Shown here: positions 1 through 52,688 of the stretch, piece after piece | Layout of the letters: each line of letters begins with the position of its first letter | Numbering within the stretch: the first letter of the stretch is position 1 | Origin: a virus | Lineage: Duplodnaviria; Caudoviricetes | Direction: 5' to 3' (one strand) | IMG/VR virus record: IMGVR_UViG_3300034123_000003 | Coordinates: 1 to 52,688 of that record | Length of the DNA stretch: 52,688 nt | Program-made: the position numbers and the translations under genes | Notes under the pieces: generated by a model | Seen by the model: the letters and a program-made list of their open reading frames with translations, nothing else | What the model was told of the DNA's origin: nothing | Database searches by the model: none

Positions 1-116
1 TTGGCATGGAGAAAATCCTTACCCTTATCGGTTCCGTAGACAAATCGGACACGTACACAGTAAAAGGAAGGCCGCTTGCCAATGGCATCTGTGAATGGGA
101 TTTGGTTTGGCTTGGC
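1..116. repeat. Terminal overlap, identical to 52548-52663 (circularisation point)
   Basis: ttggcatggagaaaatcc...ggtttggcttggc occurs at both ends; identity stops after base 116 / 52663. Confidence 0.95.
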
Positions 117-857
117 GGCGGTGGCGGCGGATCGAGCGCGTCTCCGGTAACCGCTCGGCTTGGCGTGGCCGCAAGCTACTCTCTTCTTGCTTACTCGGGG
201 ATTACGAACACCGGGAACACGGTTATCTCCGGTGGCAACATCGGCTCGTCCCCGACAGCATCCATTACCGGCTTCCCTCCGGGGACTCTCACGGCTCCAG
301 CGATCATCAACAACGCAGGAGCAGCGGCGGCGCAGACTGCTTTGGCGTCGGCGATCCTTTACTATCAGGGGTTGACTCCAACCCTTTCCGGGTTGAGCAA
401 TCTCAGCACCGGAGGAAACGGCTCTACGGCGGCTACGTTCACCTCCGGCGTCTACGTTGGCGCGGCTGGGTTGACGATGCCGACAGGGATCATTCTCGAC
501 GCGCAGAACAACCCAAACGCCACATTCGTGTTTGTGGCAGGATCGACAATCAACCTTGCCAGCGGCCAGACGGTATCGCTTGTGAATGGAGCGAAGGCTT
601 CTAACGTGGTGTTCGTGGCAGGTAGTTCCTTTACATCAGTGGCTACCTCGACGATTAACGGAAACATCCTTGCTGTGGCCAGTGTCACGCTTGGGGGCGG
701 TACACTGAATGGACGCGCACTCGCCAACACCGGGGCGGTCACTATCGCGGCGGCTACGGCTGCTACCGTTCCGGCATCTGGCAGCACTGGAGGCGAAGTG
801 GCTGCGGGAACAAACTTGTCTGGCTTCACTGTGAGGCTTACGGCTATCGGGATTTAG
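1..857 (+). CDS. 3' part of a small head-associated protein carrying an inserted DUF3494 ice-binding (IBP-1 fold) domain; true start is ATG 52412 across the junction (330 aa total)
   Basis: DUF3494 hallmarks LGVAASYSLLAYSGITNTG..GNIGSSP, TFTSGVY, LDAQNNPNATFVF, LVNGAKASNVVF, GNILA..SVTL..LNGRALA..GAVTI; flanks are homologous to ORF 52076-52402. Confidence 0.9.
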   Translation, partial: GMEKILTLIGSVDKSDTYTVKGRPLANGICEWDLVWLGGGGGGSSASPVTARLGVAASYSLLAYSGITNTGNTVISGGNIGSSPTASITGFPPGTLTAPAIINNAGAAAAQTALASAILYYQGLTPTLSGLSNLSTGGNGSTAATFTSGVYVGAAGLTMPTGIILDAQNNPNATFVFVAGSTINLASGQTVSLVNGAKASNVVFVAGSSFTSVATSTINGNILAVASVTLGGGTLNGRALANTGAVTIAAATAATVPASGSTGGEVAAGTNLSGFTVRLTAIGI

Positions 858-881
858 GGATAGGTTTTCATTAACCTTTGG

Positions 882-915
882 GCTGGGGGCTTCACGGCCC
901 TCAGCTTTTTCTTTT
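882..915 (+). terminator. Intrinsic terminator after the head module
   Basis: gctgggggc-ttcacg-gccctcagc stem followed by tttttctttt. Confidence 0.75.
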
Positions 916-926
916 AAGGAGAGAAC

Positions 927-1928
927 GTGGCGCTCATCGACATGACCTCTGAGCTTACCGACTTGGTTCCAGCGTTGAGCCGTGTCCGTGCTAAGAGGCT
1001 CGTCAATCGCGCATTCAAGATCGCTCAAGACTCATCGTTGTGGAGCTTTCAACTTCAGCAGGGAAGTTTCTCCACGCCGAGCGTATCGACGGCTGGTTCG
1101 GTCACGTTCTCGTTGGGAAGCAATCAGGTCATCGGCGATGCGGCGGCTTCTGCTCAGTGGCAGGCGTTGCCGTTCTACTGGAGCCCGACGACTCAGCAGA
1201 TCAGGGCGCAAGGTTACTCGGTCTACTCCATCATCGCAATGGATACGACCGACCCTAACGCGGTGGTTTTGACTCTCGACAGGAACTTCACCGATCCTCT
1301 CAAGTTCTACACCGGGGTTCCCTACCAGATGTACGGGGCATACATTCCGGCTCCAAAGGGCTTCAAACGGTGGCTGAGTGTGGCAGACATGTTCGATATG
1401 TGGTCGATGGACATTTGGACTGGAGTTCGCACAGAGAACCTTGTCGATCCTGCCCGTCAAATATCGTCGAACCCTTACCGGATGCTGCCCATTGGAACAG
1501 ACCGGCGCGGCGCTGGAACAGCAACTCCTTCGGCCACTCTGAATCAGCAACTCTACGAGCTTTACCCATACCCGACTACAGAGATTTCCTACCAATGGTA
1601 CGCCGTAGTCGAGTGGCCGGAACTGGTGAACAACAGCGACACCCTTCCGTACCCTCTCGACGAAGAGGTAATCACTCAGAAGGCTTTGACGTGGGCCTAC
1701 AGGGACGCAGAGAGCCGGAAGGATATTATGGCGGCGAAGGGGGCAGGTGGGAACTATCTCGGCCTCAAGAAAGACTCGGAGACTGACTTCTTGACCCGCC
1801 TGAAGACTTTGCGCCTGTTGGACCGGGAGGCGTGTGATGCGTACATGGTTGACATGCGGGCCGCGATGAGATGTCTTACGTTCTGTCCTTGGTTCAACAG
1901 TTCAACGATGAGATCGAGTCCATTCTAG
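927..1928 (+). CDS. Putative head-tail adaptor / tail tubular protein
   Basis: 333-aa ORF, RBS aaggag, first gene after the head module; helical termini with beta-rich middle as in podovirus adaptors; positional call. Confidence 0.5.
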   Translation: MALIDMTSELTDLVPALSRVRAKRLVNRAFKIAQDSSLWSFQLQQGSFSTPSVSTAGSVTFSLGSNQVIGDAAASAQWQALPFYWSPTTQQIRAQGYSVYSIIAMDTTDPNAVVLTLDRNFTDPLKFYTGVPYQMYGAYIPAPKGFKRWLSVADMFDMWSMDIWTGVRTENLVDPARQISSNPYRMLPIGTDRRGAGTATPSATLNQQLYELYPYPTTEISYQWYAVVEWPELVNNSDTLPYPLDEEVITQKALTWAYRDAESRKDIMAAKGAGGNYLGLKKDSETDFLTRLKTLRLLDREACDAYMVDMRAAMRCLTFCPWFNSSTMRSSPF

Positions 1929-3554: not shown

Positions 3555-3584
3555 TTGCATCTAATCCGATAAATGTTTTATACT
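3555..3584 (+). promoter_or_regulatory. Sigma70-like promoter, probably leaderless, for the HNH gene
   Basis: TTGCAT-N18-TATACT then 6 nt to ATG 3591. Confidence 0.55.
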
Positions 3585-3590
3585 TGTTAC

Positions 3591-4352
3591 ATGAAATGTC
3601 TCGTATGTGGAGCAGATGTTGAACGGAAAAAGAGAGGCCGATCTCCGATGTATTGTGGATCAAAATGTCGAGAAAGAGCCCGCCCCAAGACAGAAAAGCG
3701 TCTTGAACAGAAGCGTTCGGCGTATCGAGCCCACTACCAAAGAAACAAGGATGCTATTCTTGCAAAAAACCGAGAGTGGATCAAGGATCATCCTGAAAAG
3801 CCTAGAGAGTACACCGCATCATACAGAGATCGTAATCCAGAGGTGCGTGAAAAAGAGAGGATCAGAATACGCGAATACCACGCCCAAAACCGAGATATTG
3901 AATTAATCAAAAAAAAGGAATATCGACAGAAAAATAGTTTGAAAATGAGGAGGTACGCAGAAGAGAACCGGGAAAAGTTGAATGAGTATTCTCGTAATTG
4001 GCAAGCAAAAAAACGCGCTGAAAACCCAGAACTTAATCGGCAGAAACAGAAGGAATGGTATCGGCGTAATCCAGCTAAATATCTAGCGAAGACTCACCGA
4101 CGTGAAACACGTCTCACTGGCGCTGGAGGATCGTACACTGCTGAAGAGTGGAACTCTTTGTTGGACAAGTACGGGCATCGCTGTTTGCGATGCGGAAAGA
4201 CAGGAATAAAACTGACGGTAGATCACGTGATTCCTGTACTACTGGGAGGGACATCGAATATCGATAACCTTCAACCCTTATGCTTGTCTTGCAACTCTCA
4301 CAAGCACACCCGAATAGTCGATTATAGGCCGGAGGAAATTCATGGCGCGTAG
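3591..4352 (+). CDS. HNH endonuclease (free-standing, homing-like)
   Basis: N-terminal CxxC..YCxxxC, long basic helical region, C-terminal CLRCG..LTVDHVIP..GGTSNIDNLQPLCLSCN; visibly more A-rich than neighbours. Confidence 0.9.
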   Translation: MKCLVCGADVERKKRGRSPMYCGSKCRERARPKTEKRLEQKRSAYRAHYQRNKDAILAKNREWIKDHPEKPREYTASYRDRNPEVREKERIRIREYHAQNRDIELIKKKEYRQKNSLKMRRYAEENREKLNEYSRNWQAKKRAENPELNRQKQKEWYRRNPAKYLAKTHRRETRLTGAGGSYTAEEWNSLLDKYGHRCLRCGKTGIKLTVDHVIPVLLGGTSNIDNLQPLCLSCNSHKHTRIVDYRPEEIHGA

Positions 4353-35178: not shown

Positions 35179-36147
35179 CTAAAGTTCGTAGTTTTCCGCT
35201 TCGATTTTGGTCAAGAAAAAGTGGATACCGTGGGAGCAAACGTTCCAGCGATCTTCGTCCCATGAGTCGGCTGTGACCGTCTCTCCCGTGCGGTAGGTAG
35301 CATTACCGTGAGAGCTTCGTCCCTCGTCTGCGCCGATGACTTCCAAAACAACAACATGAGAGGCGCGGCACTTGCGCCCTTCCCCGTGGCTGCGTTTGGC
35401 ATCTGCGGGTATCAGGAGATGTACCAAAACCCCTTCAAGGCAAATCTTCCACGCCTCAAATGGTCCAGTCTCAGGGATGAATTGAATAGCGGCGAGTGCT
35501 TTCTCGGAATTTTTGGCACCGCGCAGGTAGGCACTGCTCAGGTCGGCACTGCTCAGGTCGGCACCGCTCAGGTCGGCACTGCTCAGGTTGGCACTGCTCA
35601 GGTAGGCACTGCTCAGGTCGGCACCGCTCAGGTTGGCACTGCGCAGGTTGGCACTGCTCAGGTAGGCACTGCGCAGGTCGGCACCGCTCAGGTTGGCACC
35701 GCGCAGGTCGGCACCGCGCAGGTTGGCACTGCTCAGGTCGGCACTGCTCAGGTCGGCACCGCTCAGGTCGGCACTGCTCAGGTTGGCACTGCTCAGGTAG
35801 GCACCGCGCAGGTCGGCACCGCGCAGGTTGGCACTGCTCAGGTAGGCACTGCTCAGGTCGGCACTGCTCAGGTCGGCACCGCTCAGGTTGGCACCGCGCA
35901 GGTAGGCACTGCTCAGGTCGGCACCGCTCAGGTTGGCACTGCTCAGGTAGGCACTGCTCAGGTAGGCACTGCGCAGGTTGGCACCGCGCAGGTCGGCACC
36001 GCTCAGGTAGGCACTGCGCAGGTCGGCACTGCTCAGGTTGGCACCGCGCAGGTCGGACTTCTTAGCTATCGCCTCAAGTACAGCGTCTTTGATGGTGAGC
36101 GCGGCAGATGTAAAAATCACCGCGCCGTAAATGTTCTTGATTTCCAT
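35179..36147 (-). CDS. Pentapeptide-repeat protein with conserved C-terminal phage domain (DUF5758-like)
   Basis: A[NDY]L[SR][GS] repeats; C-terminal L.IPADAKRS....KCRAS..WDEDRWNVCSHGIHFF. Confidence 0.9.
   Translation of the reverse strand: MEIKNIYGAVIFTSAALTIKDAVLEAIAKKSDLRGANLSSADLRSAYLSGADLRGANLRSAYLSSAYLSSANLSGADLSSAYLRGANLSGADLSSADLSSAYLSSANLRGADLRGAYLSSANLSSADLSGADLSSADLSSANLRGADLRGANLSGADLRSAYLSSANLRSANLSGADLSSAYLSSANLSSADLSGADLSSADLSSAYLRGAKNSEKALAAIQFIPETGPFEAWKICLEGVLVHLLIPADAKRSHGEGRKCRASHVVVLEVIGADEGRSSHGNATYRTGETVTADSWDEDRWNVCSHGIHFFLTKIEAENYEL
35515..36054. repeat. 36 tandem 15-bp units encoding the pentapeptide repeats
   Basis: ggcacYgcKcaggtH units over 540 bp. Confidence 0.95.
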
Positions 36148-42709: not shown

Positions 42710-42892
42710 GTGAGAATAGCAATATGGATCGCGCACCCTTACCTGCGTAACCCAACATTCATTCGTCGTGGTGAGCGTGGCGTGGTGTTTTCTGTACTTG
42801 GTTTTACAGTAAACATCATGCAGGGCGCATGGAAGTTCGATTGGCAAGGAAGAGACGGAAAGAGAAAAAAGATGAAAGGTAGCCTTGTTTAG
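42710..42892 (+). CDS. Small hypothetical protein between terS? and terL
   Basis: 60-aa ORF, gaggt RBS. Confidence 0.5.
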   Translation: MRIAIWIAHPYLRNPTFIRRGERGVVFSVLGFTVNIMQGAWKFDWQGRDGKRKKMKGSLV

Positions 42893-45053
42893 CAAACGCC
42901 TAGCTACCGATCAACTGTCCATGCTTTCGGAAGCGTCTGCCAAATCGGAGACTGGGCTATGGATTCCTGAGTACCATTCCCTATCACAGATCGACAGCTT
43001 CAACTCCCACTTCAAAGCGCTGGCAGAAAAAGCAGAGCGTCTTGGTAACGACGTGGAGGATGCACTCGGTACTGAGGAGCTTGCGTGGATCGACAACGAG
43101 TACAAGATTTGCAGTTGCGACGACCGTTACTGGATGGACGGGTACTCCTACATCAACGATGACTCTCGCGTAGTAAGGTTCGAGCCCCGATTCTCGCAGC
43201 GCATGATGATTGACACATGGGCCGAACGTGAGGAGGCTGGGCTTCCAATTGAGCAGCAAGTGCTCAAGGCCCGTCAGCAGGGAATCTCTACGCTGGTAGA
43301 GCTTGCCATCGCCAAGAAGGTGAACTTCGGCATCGGAATCAAGGCGGCGGTAGCCTCTTACGACCAGGACGCTTGCGAACGCATGGGAGGCATGATGGAA
43401 CTAGCCTTCAATGAGATGCCAAGCTGGATGAAGGCAAACCCCACCAGTGACCGCGCCGGATCGTTGAAGGCATTCGCAGCCACCAACACTCGACTGACGC
43501 TCTACTCTGGCAAGAAAGCATCCGGTATCGCTAGGGGAGATACCCCATCGGTCCTCCACATCTCGGAAGTATCTATTTTCCCTGATGCGTCCAACGTGAT
43601 CGAGAAGTCCCTTTTCCAAGCCGTCCACCCTTCGCCCAACACGTTTATGATCCTCGAATCGACGGGCAATGGCAACACGGACTGGTGGGCTCGGACGTGG
43701 TACTCAAGCCGAGACTACTGGGCAAGCGGAGGGGCAAGGCTCCAGCCGATCTTCTTCCCCTTCTTCATCGCCGTGGATCTATTCCCGACTCCAACATGGC
43801 GCAGGGAGCATCCGACGCCGAAGGACTGGACGCCGCTTACCGAAACGAAGCAGATGATGGCGAAGGCTGCGGAATATGTCCACCAGACGCCACTCATTCG
43901 GAAGTATGCCGGGGAAGACTGGCGGATGCAGGACTTCCAAGCCTACTACTGGGAGCAGGAGTTGAAGGAAGCCCGCAGAAAGGGTGAGGAGAACTCGTTC
44001 TATCAAGAGCGCCCGATGGACGATAACGAAGCTCTCAGGCCCAAGAAAGACCTTGTATTCAATCTGCAAGAGGTAAAGAAGCAGGAGGAGACGCGCAGTG
44101 ACTACACCGTTTGGTCAATCATCGGAGAGCAAGTACAGGAGCGTTACCAGCCCGATCCTGTGGACATCGACTATGAAGGAGACAGGTTCCGAGTCAACTT
44201 TGATGGAAATATCACTGATCTACGCGGACGGGTTGCCAAGACATTCTGGTGGGAGTTCGTTCCTATCAAGCAGCCCGTCGAAACCGGAATCGACTTGTTC
44301 GACATTGAGCGGCGGTGTCTTATCTTCCGCTGGCCGGAAGCAGGGTACATCTACGGAATCGGCGCTGACAACTCAGGCGGGACAGGAAAGGACGGAACCT
44401 ACCTGAGCGTGAACGGGAAGTCGATCTACGGGAACGAGCCCGACTTTCAGGCGGCGTGCTGGTGGTCAAACAAGACTGACCCATCGCTGGTACATCCGTA
44501 CATCATGGCTCTGGCTTCTCTCTACGGTTCCGAGATGCCGGAAGGGACGTATCCTCTGGTGGGGATCGAACAGGTCTATGGACTGGGAGACACGCCGCAG
44601 ATTCAGATGCTCTCGATGGGATGGAATAAGAGGAACCTCTACCACTTCTCCAGACTCGACGGAATGAATCCGGAGCACGACAAGAAGAAGTCCAAGCGCA
44701 TGGGTTGGTACACGACGGAGTGGAGCCGCAACTTCATGCTGTCGCTCTACAAGACGGCGGTAGAGAATCACTGGCGCAAGGTCAACGACCCTTTCCTGTT
44801 GAAGCACGAGATTCCGGCATTCCAGATCGACAAGACAGATGGAGGAAAGACACGATGGGATCATCAGGACGGAAAGCGGGATGATCGCATCTTCGGCGAC
44901 GGAATCGCCTACTGCATTATGAATGATACGGAAAGCATGACTCGGCGCGTTCTGAACAAGTTCGAAGGAGAAGAAGAAGAGATTGAGATTGATTACGGGT
45001 ATCCAGTGGGCATAAACTCAACACTTGAAGAGATGATGGGAGCGGAACTGTGA
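42885..45053 (+). CDS. terL: Terminase large subunit
   Basis: Walker A LKARQQGIST, LHISEV, ILESTGNG, nuclease IGADNSGG...DDRIFGDG. Confidence 0.92.
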   Translation: MFSKRLATDQLSMLSEASAKSETGLWIPEYHSLSQIDSFNSHFKALAEKAERLGNDVEDALGTEELAWIDNEYKICSCDDRYWMDGYSYINDDSRVVRFEPRFSQRMMIDTWAEREEAGLPIEQQVLKARQQGISTLVELAIAKKVNFGIGIKAAVASYDQDACERMGGMMELAFNEMPSWMKANPTSDRAGSLKAFAATNTRLTLYSGKKASGIARGDTPSVLHISEVSIFPDASNVIEKSLFQAVHPSPNTFMILESTGNGNTDWWARTWYSSRDYWASGGARLQPIFFPFFIAVDLFPTPTWRREHPTPKDWTPLTETKQMMAKAAEYVHQTPLIRKYAGEDWRMQDFQAYYWEQELKEARRKGEENSFYQERPMDDNEALRPKKDLVFNLQEVKKQEETRSDYTVWSIIGEQVQERYQPDPVDIDYEGDRFRVNFDGNITDLRGRVAKTFWWEFVPIKQPVETGIDLFDIERRCLIFRWPEAGYIYGIGADNSGGTGKDGTYLSVNGKSIYGNEPDFQAACWWSNKTDPSLVHPYIMALASLYGSEMPEGTYPLVGIEQVYGLGDTPQIQMLSMGWNKRNLYHFSRLDGMNPEHDKKKSKRMGWYTTEWSRNFMLSLYKTAVENHWRKVNDPFLLKHEIPAFQIDKTDGGKTRWDHQDGKRDDRIFGDGIAYCIMNDTESMTRRVLNKFEGEEEEIEIDYGYPVGINSTLEEMMGAEL

Positions 45054-46415: not shown

Positions 46416-48545
46416 ATGTCTGACCGCGACGAAGTGAATTGGCAGTGCCCGAACTTTGAGGCTCCCGACGCAACGAAGCTCGGCTTCCTGAAGCGTTGTG
46501 TCTCTCAGGGAGTCGCGTGGCAGCAAGACAACTGCAACGCTTCCGACATGCAGCGGGCGATGGATATTCTCGCCGGGAAGACGGGCGGGAAAACTTCTTC
46601 GAAGTGGGCCAAGTTCACCACGGGTGATCTGAAGCGCGGCGTGCTTGAGATCGTCGAAACTCTTTCAGACATTCGGCCCTACTGGGGATACTCGACCGAC
46701 AACAAAGCCTTCCTTGGCGAAGCGAACATGATGAGCAAGGTGGCGAAGGCGATCTACCTTGAGTACTTCGTTGATCGCGCCATCAAAGACGCTCTCCAGT
46801 TCGCCGCCGTGTCTGGGGCCGGGTTCATCTACCCGTTCTACTCGCGTTCGATGTACGGCGCTGGCGACGGGGAGTTCGTGTTTATGGCTCTGGGACAGCC
46901 CGACGTGCTCCCGATTCAGCTTGGACGTAGTAAGGACTACCAGAACGCCTACATCGTCACCTTGGCCCCTCCTATGGGAATTGCTGAGGCTCACGCAAGG
47001 TTCCCAGAGTTCCAGCAGTTTATCCATCCATTCTCGAAACGAAAATACGGAAGAACGAAGGGTGGAGAAGGGCGGGCGGCGAATGATCGTGAGCGTTGGA
47101 GGATGCACGGAATCCAAGGCCAACTTGAATCATTCTGCGACATTTACTACACCTACGTTCTGGACTTGAGGGTGAACTACGGCGAATTGGATGAAGAAGG
47201 AAAACCGATTCTTGGCGATGATGGGAACCCGGTCGGCAAAGAGTTGGAGATGGGTCAGGTGGGGACAAGTTGGTACTACAAGGTTCCCTATGTTGGCCAG
47301 AAGATCACTCGCTTTGAGGGTGGTAAGTCGGTTGAGCGCGAGGCGACGGAGGATGATTGCCGCGTGTACCCGCAGAGGCGCTTGCTGATCCACTGCGACG
47401 GCGCTCTGATGTACGACGGACCCGCCTTCGACTGGCACGGCATGGTGCCTCTAGTTGCGTTCTATCTTGACGAGTGGGCATGGGAACCGACAGGGTACTC
47501 GCTGTTCAATGGCACGGCGGCAACACAGGACGCTATCGACGACTTGATGCGGTCGATCTACCGCGTGGCGATGGCAAGGGCGATCCCCGGCAAGGTCTAC
47601 AACATGGACATTACGACGGGGGAGAAGGGCGGCAAGTTGACTTCGAGGCAAGCGGAAGGGCTTGACCCGCTGAGTCCCGACATTACGTGGGGGATCGATG
47701 GCGACGTGAAAGAACCAGTCATGCGTCCCCCAATGCCGGAATGGTGCTACAACGTCCCTGAGTGGGTGATGAGGGTCGTGGAGTTCCTTCAGCAGACTAT
47801 TCTTCGTCAGTTGGGACACGACCAGATCAAGGCGCTTGAGAAGCTACGCGGCAATATCTCCGACCCAGAGAAGTTGCTTGATGCGCAAGGGCCTACGGTT
47901 ATGGGAACGTCTCGGTCGATGGAGCGCGGATTCCGTGACTTGGCAGAGATGCTGAAGTTCCTTGTGATTCAGTACATGCCGGTGCGGACGCTGATCGACT
48001 ATCTCGGCACCGATGGTATACCGGCCACAGTGTTCGACTACTCGCCGGACATGGTGATTCCTTCGCATATGCCGGGAGAGAACACGGTGGACTCGATGGG
48101 AAATGCGGTCGATTCCGGTGTGGAGACGTTGACTAGGGCCAAGACGTTCGCTAAGAATCTGCGCACGTTTATGACGCCTCACTCGATGCACTATATCGCA
48201 CAAGCGAAGCAGCGGCTTGATACTCTGGCTCTGTTGGGCAAGGGCGTTCCGATTGACCCTGAGACGATTGCCAATCAGTTTGACTTGCCAAACTGGGGCA
48301 GCATCGACGGATCGACGATCAAGGAGAAGGTGTTCAACTGGGCCAAGGAGCAACTGACAGAGAAGGCAGACATTGCCAAACTCGAAAAGTCGTTGGGACT
48401 GATGCCTCCAGAAGAGGGCGGCGGCAAGCCAGGACCGAAGCCGGGGCAGGCGGGCAGCGGTAGACCTCCTGAGCACAAGAAGCCCGGTAAGATTGCTCAG
48501 AAAGGTCCGTCAGGCGACGGGCGCGTTGTAGTGAAGACAAGCTAA
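46416..48545 (+). CDS. Portal protein
   Basis: 709 aa between terL and scaffold/capsid; size and helical/beta pattern fit P22-like portals. Confidence 0.75.
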   Translation: MSDRDEVNWQCPNFEAPDATKLGFLKRCVSQGVAWQQDNCNASDMQRAMDILAGKTGGKTSSKWAKFTTGDLKRGVLEIVETLSDIRPYWGYSTDNKAFLGEANMMSKVAKAIYLEYFVDRAIKDALQFAAVSGAGFIYPFYSRSMYGAGDGEFVFMALGQPDVLPIQLGRSKDYQNAYIVTLAPPMGIAEAHARFPEFQQFIHPFSKRKYGRTKGGEGRAANDRERWRMHGIQGQLESFCDIYYTYVLDLRVNYGELDEEGKPILGDDGNPVGKELEMGQVGTSWYYKVPYVGQKITRFEGGKSVEREATEDDCRVYPQRRLLIHCDGALMYDGPAFDWHGMVPLVAFYLDEWAWEPTGYSLFNGTAATQDAIDDLMRSIYRVAMARAIPGKVYNMDITTGEKGGKLTSRQAEGLDPLSPDITWGIDGDVKEPVMRPPMPEWCYNVPEWVMRVVEFLQQTILRQLGHDQIKALEKLRGNISDPEKLLDAQGPTVMGTSRSMERGFRDLAEMLKFLVIQYMPVRTLIDYLGTDGIPATVFDYSPDMVIPSHMPGENTVDSMGNAVDSGVETLTRAKTFAKNLRTFMTPHSMHYIAQAKQRLDTLALLGKGVPIDPETIANQFDLPNWGSIDGSTIKEKVFNWAKEQLTEKADIAKLEKSLGLMPPEEGGGKPGPKPGQAGSGRPPEHKKPGKIAQKGPSGDGRVVVKTS

Positions 48546-50162: not shown

Positions 50163-51392
50163 ATGCCTGGATTTGGGCCGCTTTTCCCGGAACTAAGTTC
50201 CACTACTCTCAACGAGCTCGTGGATGGGTATATCTACCAGAACAGCTACGTGGGGACTCCCCTACAACGCTATTTCCGCGCTTCGGGTGCATATGACCCA
50301 TTCGGCGGCGGCGCTGGTATGCAGGTTCCCGACCTCTACCAAGGGGTAGGCGGCGGCGCACTGTTCCCCGGCGAGGATGTGACCATCGTCGATGAGCAGG
50401 TCATCACTGCCAGCCTCTTCCAGCCCAAGGCGTACGCCAAGTACAAGCTGGTGAACGATTTTGTGATTGAGGCTCAGAACAAGGGTCCAGAGGCTCGTGT
50501 GGCGCTGCTCGAAGCGTACCTGAATCAGATGATGGAGGGTATCGACTTCCAGATCGAGGGCGATATGTTCCGCCACGGTCAGGCGTCGGGCAACGGCGTC
50601 AGCGACAATCGCCTCGCATCTATCAACGGGTTCTCGGAAGCGATGAACGACGGCATTGTTCCTTCATGGGACGGCAACGTGTTCCCGACCTACGGCGGTC
50701 AGTCTCGCAACGGCGCAATCGCCGCTTCGATGAACTCGACTCCGATCTGGCTGGGCGATCAGAACGGCAACCCAGCCCCCCCGAACTATCAGTCTCTTTT
50801 GAAGAGCTACCTGACTCCGATCTTGAACGGTGGAGACAAGCTGGGCGTCACCTCGTACCTAGGGTACTCTTCGATCACTTCGGCATTCCAGCGTCAGGAG
50901 CGGTACTTTACCCGCGACGACAAGCACATCAACTGGGAAGGCATCAAGCTCGAAAACGCGACCATCTTCTACGACGACATTGTTCCATCGAGCGCCCCGA
51001 AGCCGTCCATTGCGAACCTGTTTACCACAGTGAACGGAACCGCTCCTTCGCCGGGTGCGATTCAGACCGGCCAGTTCACTTTGACGGCAGCGATGATCGC
51101 CCAGAATCAGGGCATCTCGAATCTTCCGAACCTTGGATTCACGTCGAACTCGACGAAGAACGGCTTGGCCGGTGGCTTGAATCAGATTGTGGTCGGCGAG
51201 CCGCTGTTCTGGGTGACACCGGACAACTGGAAGTACCGTGAGGCTGACGGCGCTCCGGTGAACTACTACTTCATGGACCCCGCTCGGTGGCCTGAGAATC
51301 CGTTCCTGTACGTGCAGTGGTTGCGGCATGTGCTGAACTTCTACACACCGACGCCGCGTGAAGAGCAACAGACTTATGGAATTTTGGCTTAG
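50163..51392 (+). CDS. Major capsid protein
   Basis: 409 aa, strong RBS aaggag, position after scaffold; HK97-like layout inferred. Confidence 0.75.
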   Translation: MPGFGPLFPELSSTTLNELVDGYIYQNSYVGTPLQRYFRASGAYDPFGGGAGMQVPDLYQGVGGGALFPGEDVTIVDEQVITASLFQPKAYAKYKLVNDFVIEAQNKGPEARVALLEAYLNQMMEGIDFQIEGDMFRHGQASGNGVSDNRLASINGFSEAMNDGIVPSWDGNVFPTYGGQSRNGAIAASMNSTPIWLGDQNGNPAPPNYQSLLKSYLTPILNGGDKLGVTSYLGYSSITSAFQRQERYFTRDDKHINWEGIKLENATIFYDDIVPSSAPKPSIANLFTTVNGTAPSPGAIQTGQFTLTAAMIAQNQGISNLPNLGFTSNSTKNGLAGGLNQIVVGEPLFWVTPDNWKYREADGAPVNYYFMDPARWPENPFLYVQWLRHVLNFYTPTPREEQQTYGILA

Positions 51393-51409: not shown

Positions 51410-52066
51410 ATGGCAAGGATTTCGACTCCGGGCATCTGGCTTCCAGGCCCACTCAATACGCTGAACAGCCCCAGCCCTACCGGGCAGGCTGACATCGCCG
51501 GGAACCCCTACTACATGGGGATGAACCCCGGCAAGATGATCGTGCTTGGCGCGGGTGAGGCGCAGAGCAATGCCGCCATCGGCACCACGCTCTATGATGG
51601 CGCGTATCAGGTCGTGCAGCTTGACTCTGGTGCGACGGCTGCGAACGCAACGCTGGGTATGCCCGCGTACATCTTGCTCGACTCTGGGGCCACGCAGGGC
51701 GCGTTGCCGGAGACGGCCTACAACATCCCAGCGGTAACCACAGCCGACAAGGCGACCACGATCACCACTCTTTTCGCTGGCGTGTTCATCAACCCGGCCA
51801 CGGTAGTAGGCATGGCGAACGGTCCTACCCCCGGAAACTATACGATGATCTTTGTCGGTGGTGGAAGAGCGCAGACGAACAACTCTGCGGCGGCGGTTGT
51901 TGGTCAGCCTGTTTGGCCCAGCGCCCCTTCGGCGGTGACGTTCCAGACTTCAGCTATTGCCCCAACGTCGGGAATCGCATGGGGTCAATCAGTGCAGACC
52001 ACTGGTGCAGCCGGTCTTGCTCTCACGTACTTCCCTGAAATCCTCTTCCGCTTCGGTGGGATGTAA
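51410..52066 (+). CDS. Putative capsid cement / decoration protein
   Basis: A/G/T-rich protein directly after the MCP. Confidence 0.5.
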   Translation: MARISTPGIWLPGPLNTLNSPSPTGQADIAGNPYYMGMNPGKMIVLGAGEAQSNAAIGTTLYDGAYQVVQLDSGATAANATLGMPAYILLDSGATQGALPETAYNIPAVTTADKATTITTLFAGVFINPATVVGMANGPTPGNYTMIFVGGGRAQTNNSAAAVVGQPVWPSAPSAVTFQTSAIAPTSGIAWGQSVQTTGAAGLALTYFPEILFRFGGM

Positions 52067-52075
52067 GGAGACGGA

Positions 52076-52402
52076 ATGGCGCAGGCATTAGGTAGCTCGA
52101 AAGTCCTACTGGGCGATGTTGACACCTTCGGCGGCAAGGGCTATGCCCCCGTCGATTACAGCGGACCCGCTAGTTATACGACTGGCGGCGACACTCTTGA
52201 TCCGAAGTCGTTCAATATGAATAAATTCCTGACCGTGATCGGCTCCGTGGATCAGACAGGTGCCTATTACGTGGAAGGTAGAACGCTTGCCAATGGAATC
52301 TGCAACTGGCAATTGGTCTGGTTTGCGGTAGGCGGCGGCGAAGTGGCCGCTGGAACAAACCTTTCAGGCTTTACAGTCAGACTTTCGGCAATCGGAATCT
52401 AG
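52076..52402 (+). CDS. Small head-associated protein (108 aa), paralog of the ice-binding carrier
   Basis: Aligns end-to-end with the flanks of the 52412-(857) product. Confidence 0.75.
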   Translation: MAQALGSSKVLLGDVDTFGGKGYAPVDYSGPASYTTGGDTLDPKSFNMNKFLTVIGSVDQTGAYYVEGRTLANGICNWQLVWFAVGGGEVAAGTNLSGFTVRLSAIGI

Positions 52403-52411
52403 GGAGAAGTA

Positions 52412-52688
52412 ATGGCGCAAGGATCAGGCATCTCGAAAGTCCTGCAAAGCTCCCTGGATACGTTTGGCGGGAAGTATTACGGTCCATTGGATTACGTTGG
52501 ATCTTCTAGCTACGTCACGGGTGGAGACAAGATTTCAGCCAAAGCCTTTGGCATGGAGAAAATCCTTACCCTTATCGGTTCCGTAGACAAATCGGACACG
52601 TACACAGTAAAAGGAAGGCCGCTTGCCAATGGCATCTGTGAATGGGATTTGGTTTGGCTTGGCAGCACTGGAGGCGAAGTGGCTGCGG
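52412..52688 (+). CDS. 5' part of the second paralog (MAQGSGISKVLQ...), here in the insert-less form, truncated by the contig end
   Basis: ggag RBS; 47 codons to ATG 52553 (= base 6); after 52663 it continues as bases 783-807. Confidence 0.85.
   Translation, partial: MAQGSGISKVLQSSLDTFGGKYYGPLDYVGSSSYVTGGDKISAKAFGMEKILTLIGSVDKSDTYTVKGRPLANGICEWDLVWLGSTGGEVAA

Follow-up and report, generated by a model that had tools for sequence, protein, structure and literature searches.

How does a domain known from the secreted or anchored ice-binding proteins of cells come to lie inside a structural gene of a soil virus, and what might it do there? The question is raised by the IMG/VR virus record IMGVR_UViG_3300034123_000003, which was analysed over its whole length of 52,688 nucleotides (nt; hereafter, the window). 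This entire virus entry is listed as 'linear', CheckV estimates it to be 68% complete, and the habitat of the phage is peat soil, both metagenome runs that hold the gene being from peat. Structural genes are read from the plus strand between about 40.5 kb and the 3' end and then from position 1 to about 14.3 kb; since the operon continues across the record ends, the two ends meet within one gene. That gene encodes a small protein, here called the carrier, and is interrupted at 117-782 by an in-frame insert of 666 nt, or 222 codons. The insert, here called the passenger, encodes a DUF3494 (Pfam PF11999) beta-solenoid. It is considered fairly probable that the passenger is an optional surface-binding (adhesion) module that is displayed on the virion by a beta-sandwich carrier, with the ligand left unspecified.

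Joining 52412-52547 to 1-857 yields an open reading frame (ORF) of 330 amino acids (aa), as the initial annotation had proposed. The protein is real. Longer matches to the carrier profile include five independent fusions, all of full length (328-333 aa) and with PF11999, which come from JGI, ENA, and Logan; the sixth match is the window's own 283-aa piece. One of these fusions, P0034, comes from another contig; it is likewise 330 aa long, is built in the same way, and has two differences in the 46 N-terminal residues that are missing from the window's 5' copy, and the passengers of the five fusion variants are 75-92% identical in pairwise comparison. What the simple join overlooks is that the last 25 nt of the record (52664-52688) equal 783-807 and not 117-141, meaning that the 3' end carries the gene without its passenger, an insert-less allele. 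The complete DUF3494 domain that had been read in the 222 residues behind a Gly/Ser linker was recovered by PF11999 with 121.1 bits at E 6.7e-35 (gathering cut-off 28.7; profile positions 2-206 of 208), and a six-frame search placed a single copy in the whole record. Read by eye, the N-side linker is LG-GGGGGSSASP and the C-side linker ...TVPASG. The absence of a signal peptide also held: by eye, the N-terminus of the fusion (MAQGSGISKVLQSSLDTFGG) is not hydrophobic, and neither a signal peptide nor a surface anchor marks it for export. The 108-aa neighbour at 52076-52402, previously taken for a paralog, is indeed one (P1, the plain paralog), with 65.7% identity to the insert-less form of the interrupted gene (P2) and a C-terminal strand, GGEVAAGTNLSGFTVRL(S/T)AIGI, common to both. 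The insert has a GC content of 60.5% versus 53.8% for the genome, and its GC at third codon positions (64.9%) lies between those of the carrier (54.8-58.7%) and the capsid gene (73.4%); composition gives no clear foreign signal. The fusion protein had no match in INPHARED.

The insert-less product would be 108 aa long, and exactly such a protein (P0005) is known from a 39.9-kb contig. Logan contigs of two peat-metagenome runs (X1 and X2) were compared with positions 1-1200 of the window, Logan depths being rough. In X1, a 16,721-nt contig (depth 20.1) stops at 116 and a 34,764-nt contig (depth 17.6) begins at 779. A 722-nt contig (depth 7.6) covers 87-808, bridging both insert junctions, and a 56-nt contig, also of depth 7.6, has the insert-less junction. 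In X2, a 6,003-nt contig (depth 10.9) links 112 to 779, omitting 666 nt, with four ambiguous letters (TGGC), while pieces of the insert cover 88-238 (depth 2) and 243-495 (depth 3.6); the flanks of the insert have no other listed differences. A third run, X3 (riverine, share 0.06), contributed no contig to this comparison. This is a true polymorphism, in which both kinds of genome occur side by side: the loaded and insert-less forms are present at about 1:1 in X1, and the insert-less form dominates X2. The ambiguous TGGC is a microhomology that flanks the insert (113-116 and 779-782), and the simplest history would be a recent, precise deletion between TGGC repeats or an allele exchange by recombination. 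That the insert-less end might represent a third tandem paralog was considered and rejected, as the X1 contig passes position 1 unbroken and forks only at 116; the depths of the X1 branches sum roughly to that of the flank, which indicates a two-branch bubble and not a third paralog. As a separate observation, the long X1 contigs leave about 400 nt (window 35543-35942) uncovered, a gap that may mark another variable site of this population.

Structure prediction of the fusion and of the 108-aa paralog, which the initial annotation had named as a check, keeps the carrier strands around a DUF3494 solenoid. The AlphaFold2 model of the fusion, built on a 92-row alignment, has a predicted local distance difference test score (pLDDT) of 86.7 and a predicted template modelling score of 0.73; the solenoid core exceeds a pLDDT of 90, confidence falls at both linkers, and helices are placed at 94-104 and 153-168. 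Its carrier strands (22-29, 39-42, 51-55, 64-70, 77-84, and 322-329) are mirrored in the model of the plain paralog (22-29, 39-41, 51-58, 64-70, 78-84, and 100-107), strand 322-329 of the former corresponding to strand 100-107 of the latter. As modelled, the solenoid would be nested in a carrier loop, with the carrier folding around its passenger. When compared with the PDB, the fusion model matched 31 chains at E<=1e-3, all of the DUF3494 ice-binding fold. The best match was 7BWY (template modelling score, TM, 0.88; root-mean-square deviation 2.5 A; 35% identity), with 6EIO at TM 0.80 and a range of 0.73-0.88 over 7BWY, 6EIO, 9LHN, 4NU2, 3UYU, and 6BG8. Sequence search of the PDB likewise returned 24 matches, all of them DUF3494 ice-binding proteins (best 6EIO, 1.2e-21). 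In AnpIBP, S153 and T156 are residues of the B face at which substitution with Tyr lowers ice binding (PMC7277481). Sequence alignment places them on the Ser and Thr of GSSFTS in the passenger and pairs the ice-binding-site strand SAVTLD of AnpIBP with T(G)AVTIA. This alignment is compatible with an intact binding face; it does not show ice binding.

The arrangement recurs in other phages. With the capsid protein as query, 12 IMG/VR loci were retrieved, and the passenger is present in none of them. Seven are close, and in six of the seven a single plain carrier lies between homologs of the 218-aa and 333-aa proteins that flank the carriers of the window, the seventh locus stopping too early. 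Relative to the window, these close loci (L005 and L007-L011) are 82-93% identical in the capsid protein, 55-77% in the 218-aa protein, and 69-85% in the 333-aa protein, with the carrier (compared with P1) at 41-51%, which marks the carrier site as hypervariable; in L005, a capsid identity of 93% goes together with a carrier identity of only about 50%. The nearest relatives of the passenger itself are 77-81% identical, lack a signal peptide, and have the domain between an N-terminal part of about 100 aa and a carrier-like last strand. In the group of P0049 (clade B), 8 of 17 IMG/VR loci hold full-length fusions. All eight have portal, capsid (31% identical to that of the window), and 218-aa homolog genes upstream, and seven have the 333-aa homolog downstream. 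The full gene order was read in two of them (L017 and L021): capsid, a 280-288-aa protein, a plain carrier (120-125 aa), a DUF3494 carrier (335 aa), and a 337-aa protein. Plain and loaded carriers are 65.7% identical in the window's clade and 67.5% in clade B, versus 34-40% between the two clades, indicating that the pair of plain and loaded genes arose twice or that gene conversion keeps its members alike.

Pattern matching (regular expressions) on the termini assigned 35 of the 119 listed non-self matches of the passenger to four carrier subtypes (A, 6; B, 13; C, 10; D, 6), and the domain is thus nested in at least four. Many of the other listed relatives have further scaffolds without signal peptide, and clear signal-peptide/PEP-CTERM forms (e.g., P0150) appear only at about 44-51% identity. 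A FastTree phylogeny of the domain was built from 110 of 120 sequences, with a signal-peptide ('SP') class that is loose and included proteins that simply start with the domain. In this tree the 36 carrier-borne inserts form one clade, within which subtype A is monophyletic (support 0.85) and the inserts of subtypes C and D are polyphyletic (supports 0.84-0.97). Further, P0035 and P0036 have identical carriers and passengers that are 91.9% identical. Together with the polyphyly of subtypes C and D, this pair hints at cassette exchange, and the difference between its passengers suggests recombination within the domain. The differing stretch of P0036 resembles, by eye, the DUF3494 lineage of other scaffolds (P0075, P0081).

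Several loci and scaffolds at the edge of this family were also noted. Recurring scaffolds free of signal peptides are found among P0075-P0130. One type has a C-terminal ...GGNISYWWDYLGVAHGS domain that is sometimes split around the solenoid, and other types have fibre-like ...YRTGGNPD... ends or MSIIIRDG... starts. Additionally, eight IMG/VR contigs of 37-311 kb found with P0049 (L026-L033) hold DUF3494 matches at 34-58% identity. At a subtype D locus (L025), none of the seven neighbouring ORFs has a PHROG match, the 409-aa neighbour does not significantly resemble the capsid protein of the window (E 0.076), and the adjacent 110-aa ORF is not a carrier.

Selection on the passenger was measured as the ratio of nonsynonymous to synonymous substitutions (dN/dS; Nei-Gojobori). 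A metagenome scan with alignment A4 found four loci, all with insert-less carriers; the window is the sole group A fusion represented by DNA, and the ratios are therefore taken from clade B alone. In that clade, passenger dN/dS is 0.046-0.081 in six of six pairs (dS 0.57-0.95), and that of the carrier is 0.065-0.157 (four genes, six pairs). Such low ratios identify the passenger as a conserved, functional part. Between the window and clade B, dS is saturated, with a dN of 0.18-0.19 for the passenger and 0.66-0.75 for the carrier. A recent capture from the host was rejected: no signal peptide is present in the nearest relatives (55-81% identity), which are themselves nested in or fused to phage-type scaffolds, and the dS of the insert versus clade B is saturated. 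The initial annotation had spoken of a domain 'grafted' into a head protein, a word that overstates recency given five diversified variants, recurrence in distant phages, and relatives that are already phage-borne. In a scan of representative genomes with A6, one locus (in a Pseudonocardia metagenome-assembled genome, MAG; 37% identity) was found among 130 pattern matches; because the scan patterns are narrow, this is only weak evidence that the passenger clade is absent from such genomes.

The plain carrier matches 33 proteins of 107-121 aa. A profile built from 30 of them matches 314 clusters (50% identity), and of the 150 listed nearly all are 100-125 aa long. The clusters nearest to the carrier by language model and by structure are unnamed and 94-100% viral, and neither PHROGs nor Pfam assigns a family to the carrier or to the 218-aa and 333-aa proteins. 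AlphaFold2 predicts the plain carrier to be a seven-strand beta-sandwich (pLDDT 79.5) in which residues 1-20 (52076-52135 and 52412-52471) have low confidence (pLDDT 37-66), about the first 18 being poorly modelled. Within this arm, none of 30 sequences departs from D16, F18, G19, or G20, and such fixed residues in a poorly modelled arm would suit the binding of a partner. The passenger occupies the loop from the WxLVW strand to the final strand. This loop has an extension of about 11 aa in 7 of 30 family members, and in P0250 and P0254 it holds an unrelated module of about 70-80 aa. The same module, Gly/Thr-rich (...GYGYTSVPSF...) and without a Pfam family, recurs as an extra segment of about 70 aa in the clade B homologs of the 218-aa protein (L017:5063-5929 and L021:5087-5929), the L017 segment and the loop module being 45% identical (E 1e-10).

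The features of the region are collected in Table 1. The initial annotation had placed the gene in the head operon ahead of a terminator, a position that both the order of genes on the capsid side and a hairpin at 880-907 bear out. By eye, the start codon of P2 is preceded 5 nt upstream by GGGAG.

Table 1. Positions of the carrier genes, the passenger, and neighbouring structural genes in the window
Feature	Position	Strand	Remark
Terminase	42885-45053	+	Weak PHROG match
Portal	46416-48545	+	Weak PHROG match
Major capsid protein	50163-51392	+	phrog_9953, E 3.7e-5; 29.7% identity to annotated major head protein of Tunturi_1/Tunturi_2
218-aa protein, between capsid gene and carriers	51410-52066	+	Syntenic with Tunturi_1 gp9
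Plain carrier paralog P1, 108 aa	52076-52402	+	
Carrier gene P2, 5' part (start codon through 'LVWLG' strand, 84 codons)	52412-52663	+	
Insert-less junction ...LVWLG|STGGEVAA	52664-52688	+	These 25 nt equal 783-807
Carrier gene P2, copy of 52548-52663, leading into insert	1-116	+	Identical sequence
Passenger: Gly/Ser linker, DUF3494 (PF11999) beta-solenoid, linker ...TVPASG	117-782	+	Missing from alternative allele
PF11999 profile match	186-758	+	Six-frame search, E 8.4e-37, 121.7 bits, profile positions 2-206 of 208
Carrier C-terminal strand STGGEVAAGTNLSGFTVRLTAIGI and stop codon	783-857	+	Predicted to close beta-sandwich behind passenger
Terminator-like hairpin, 12 pairs (7 G-C), then T-run TTTCTTTT	880-907	+	
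333-aa protein downstream of carriers	927-1928	+	Position of Tunturi_1 gp11 ('tail protein')

The 333-aa protein is kept in all related loci that extend that far. Among 50,697 phage records, the capsid protein matches only those of the Tunturiibacter phages Tunturi_1 and Tunturi_2, which are podoviruses of an Arctic tundra Acidobacteriota host (PMC11924767). The corresponding order in Tunturi_1 is major head protein (gp8), gp9, gp10 (108 aa, hypothetical), and 'tail protein' (gp11), and gp10 (XJP11499.1) matches the carrier profile (hhalign 98.1%, E 9e-14; 35% identity). One carrier homolog is labelled as from a Ca. Sulfotelmatobacter MAG and one DUF3494 relative as from a Terracidiphilus MAG; these labels and the Tunturi matches suggest that the host is probably an Acidobacteriota bacterium. 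An HNH endonuclease gene (PF01844, E 3.6e-14) lies at window 3573-4352 (+), inside the structural operon between genes for 448-aa and 1155-aa proteins, and the head block of Tunturi_1 likewise holds an HNH gene.

How might these parts work together? The carrier would be a small beta-sandwich protein of the structural module, homologous to gp10, that sits on the particle, most likely on the outside of the head or neck. The solenoid, held on Gly/Ser-rich linkers in the loop before the last strand, would project outward with its flat Ser/Thr/Ala face exposed and act as an optional adhesion module that binds an extended surface; candidate ligands are ice or an ice-like ordered surface, or a polysaccharide of the host or matrix. 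The plain paralog may permit mixed occupancy. Since that paralog adjoins the fusion and wild genomes occur with and without the passenger, the module appears to be accessory and not needed for building the particle. As would be expected of a decoration protein, the carrier gene lies in the head module beside the capsid gene in the window, six close relatives, eight clade B loci, and Tunturi_1.

Several points weigh against display of an adhesion module on the head. The fold predicted for the carrier is a beta-sandwich of a generic kind; its best neighbours, themselves weak, are knobs of tail fibres, and a location on the tail would fit equally well. For the Tunturi phages, particle morphology is reported, and a term search of the main text of the source found no mass spectrometry (PMC11924767). 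The conserved small residues on the solenoid face are also needed by the fold itself, and the identity between the passenger and ice-binding proteins that have been assayed is low, at 22-35%. Moreover, DUF3494 is described as both ice-binding and substrate-binding, and from many environments (PMC12337378). The insert-less allele is as common as the loaded one or commoner in both runs, so that any benefit of the passenger would have to be conditional. It should be added that X1 is possibly the source sample of the record and that X2, from another study, shares its year and habitat, which makes the independence of the two runs uncertain.

A narrower form of the adhesion reading, put forward in the initial annotation, holds that the passenger specifically binds ice, so that virions would be protected through freezing and thawing or be fixed to ice or brine veins in seasonally frozen peat. 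It is the bolder claim and is doubtful. The solved structures that match all belong to proteins that were assayed as ice-binding or are so named (24 of 24 by sequence, 31 of 31 by fold), the two B-face residues of AnpIBP align with Ser and Thr of the insert, both runs that hold the gene are from peat, and the capsid protein has its only cultured relatives in phages of an Arctic tundra host. However, DUF3494 structures were solved because the proteins bind ice, which biases any list of this kind, and the low identity to those structures, the description of the family as also substrate-binding, and the frequency of the insert-less allele all tell against the specific reading. Even with display granted, ice would be the less likely kind of ligand, given the biased set of solved relatives, an identity of 22-35%, and a family described in both roles. 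A fuller scenario is unlikely: that a swappable ice-binding cassette rides on the particles of Acidobacteriota soil phages, with its on/off polymorphism maintained because ice-binding virions are favoured in freezing peat and the others in thawed soil. If true, such a seasonally balanced allele pair would include the first structural ice-binding module of a virus.

That the carrier is instead a knob associated with the tail tip or fibre, from which the solenoid binds a receptor or host polysaccharide and sets host range, is improbable. Foldseek returned nothing for the carrier from the PDB at E<=1e-3, and its best VIA neighbours are trimeric fibre knobs, namely the knob of the AP22 tail fibre gp53 (4MTM; Z 6.2) and R-pyocin fibres (Z 4.5-4.6), although the tool calls arrangements with such Z scores common. 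The best 50 VIA rows contain no known decoration protein, which does not exclude one. In BFVD, the best match is an unnamed 112-aa viral protein (TM 0.72), and 'putative tail-fiber' rows are also present. Same-clade DUF3494 members (P0116-P0119) reside in proteins with termini that look fibre-like by eye, and hypervariability of the carrier region, as in L005, would suit a receptor-binding part. The gene, however, directly follows the capsid gene and precedes the first annotated tail gene, and a receptor-binding domain is unlikely to be dispensable in half of a population with identical flanks.

A further alternative places the carrier outside the virion altogether, with the fusion soluble, either intracellular or released at lysis, and serving as an auxiliary cryoprotective gene for the host. 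Three PF11999 'ice-binding-like' genes on Arctic viral contigs have been read in this way (PMC11515562). For the present gene it is highly improbable: a product without signal peptide would stay cytoplasmic until lysis, and the domain is not a free gene here, being nested in a conserved, virus-only protein of the structural operon, with the same nesting in at least four carrier subtypes. Finally, the chance that mis-assembly joined the insert to a phage gene is negligible; the two record ends disagree on the insert, as a chimera might, but the 722-nt contig of X1 bridges both junctions, pieces of the insert occur in X2, other sources supplied five further full-length fusions, neither the frame nor the linkers are broken, and purifying selection acts on the insert in the sister clade.

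Adhesion by a displayed module with the ligand unspecified thus stays the favoured account, and it would join two fields, as ice-binding proteins are known from cells and accessory adhesion domains from phage particles, and a solenoid of the ice-binding fold is here nested in a structural-module protein. Should the ligand not be ice, a large viral branch of DUF3494 would consist of adhesins, which would in itself concern research on ice-binding proteins. The two coexisting alleles with identical flanks amount to a natural knock-out, and their frequencies are traceable across seasons and depths in existing peat metagenomes. The compact passenger should express well, and a carrier homolog is available in the cultured pair of Tunturi_1 and Tunturiibacter psychrotolerans. 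At the level of titles and abstracts, no description of DUF3494 inside a phage structural protein was found in the literature. The PF11999 genes on Arctic viral contigs are the same Pfam family on viral DNA, and the accessible text of that source describes no nesting in a structural protein (PMC11515562).

Among characterized proteins, AnpIBP (7BWX/7BWY) and EfcIBP (6EIO) share the Pfam family and fold of the passenger (TM 0.88 and 0.80; 34-35% identity), and in the alignment the B-face Ser and Thr of AnpIBP are conserved. Both are free, secreted proteins, whereas the passenger has no signal peptide, is nested in the loop of a protein from a phage structural operon, and is a putative ice binder. 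SfIBP_1 (6BG8) and IBPv (5UYT), which are among the fold matches, likewise pair DUF3494 with an immunoglobulin-like or beta-sandwich module on a biological surface, and SfIBP_1 has reportedly been proposed to be an ice adhesin. In those two, the domains are arranged in tandem along a protein of the cell surface, whereas the solenoid of the window is predicted to lie inside the sandwich, and the surface would be that of a virus particle. The carrier itself has a counterpart of known phage origin in gp10 of the cultured podovirus Tunturi_1, a homolog of the same 108 aa in the same place between gp9 and gp11 after the major head protein, which has no passenger. Accessory surface domains, such as T4 Hoc and immunoglobulin-like domains, occur on phage particles, and lambda gpD and T7 10B are used for engineered display, in which wild-type helper copies accompany bulky fusions. 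Without being homologous, these systems resemble the carrier and its passenger in placing a dispensable binding module on a small structural protein, and the plain paralog beside the fusion recalls the wild-type helper copies. The difference is that a 222-aa beta-solenoid is here placed inside an internal loop and not fused to an end; this same loop naturally takes up 11, about 75, or 222 residues, a range that may be of interest for display engineering. To these known systems, the window adds a natural on/off polymorphism, a recurring pair of plain and loaded carriers, and a link to a cultured phage that makes the location of the carrier testable.

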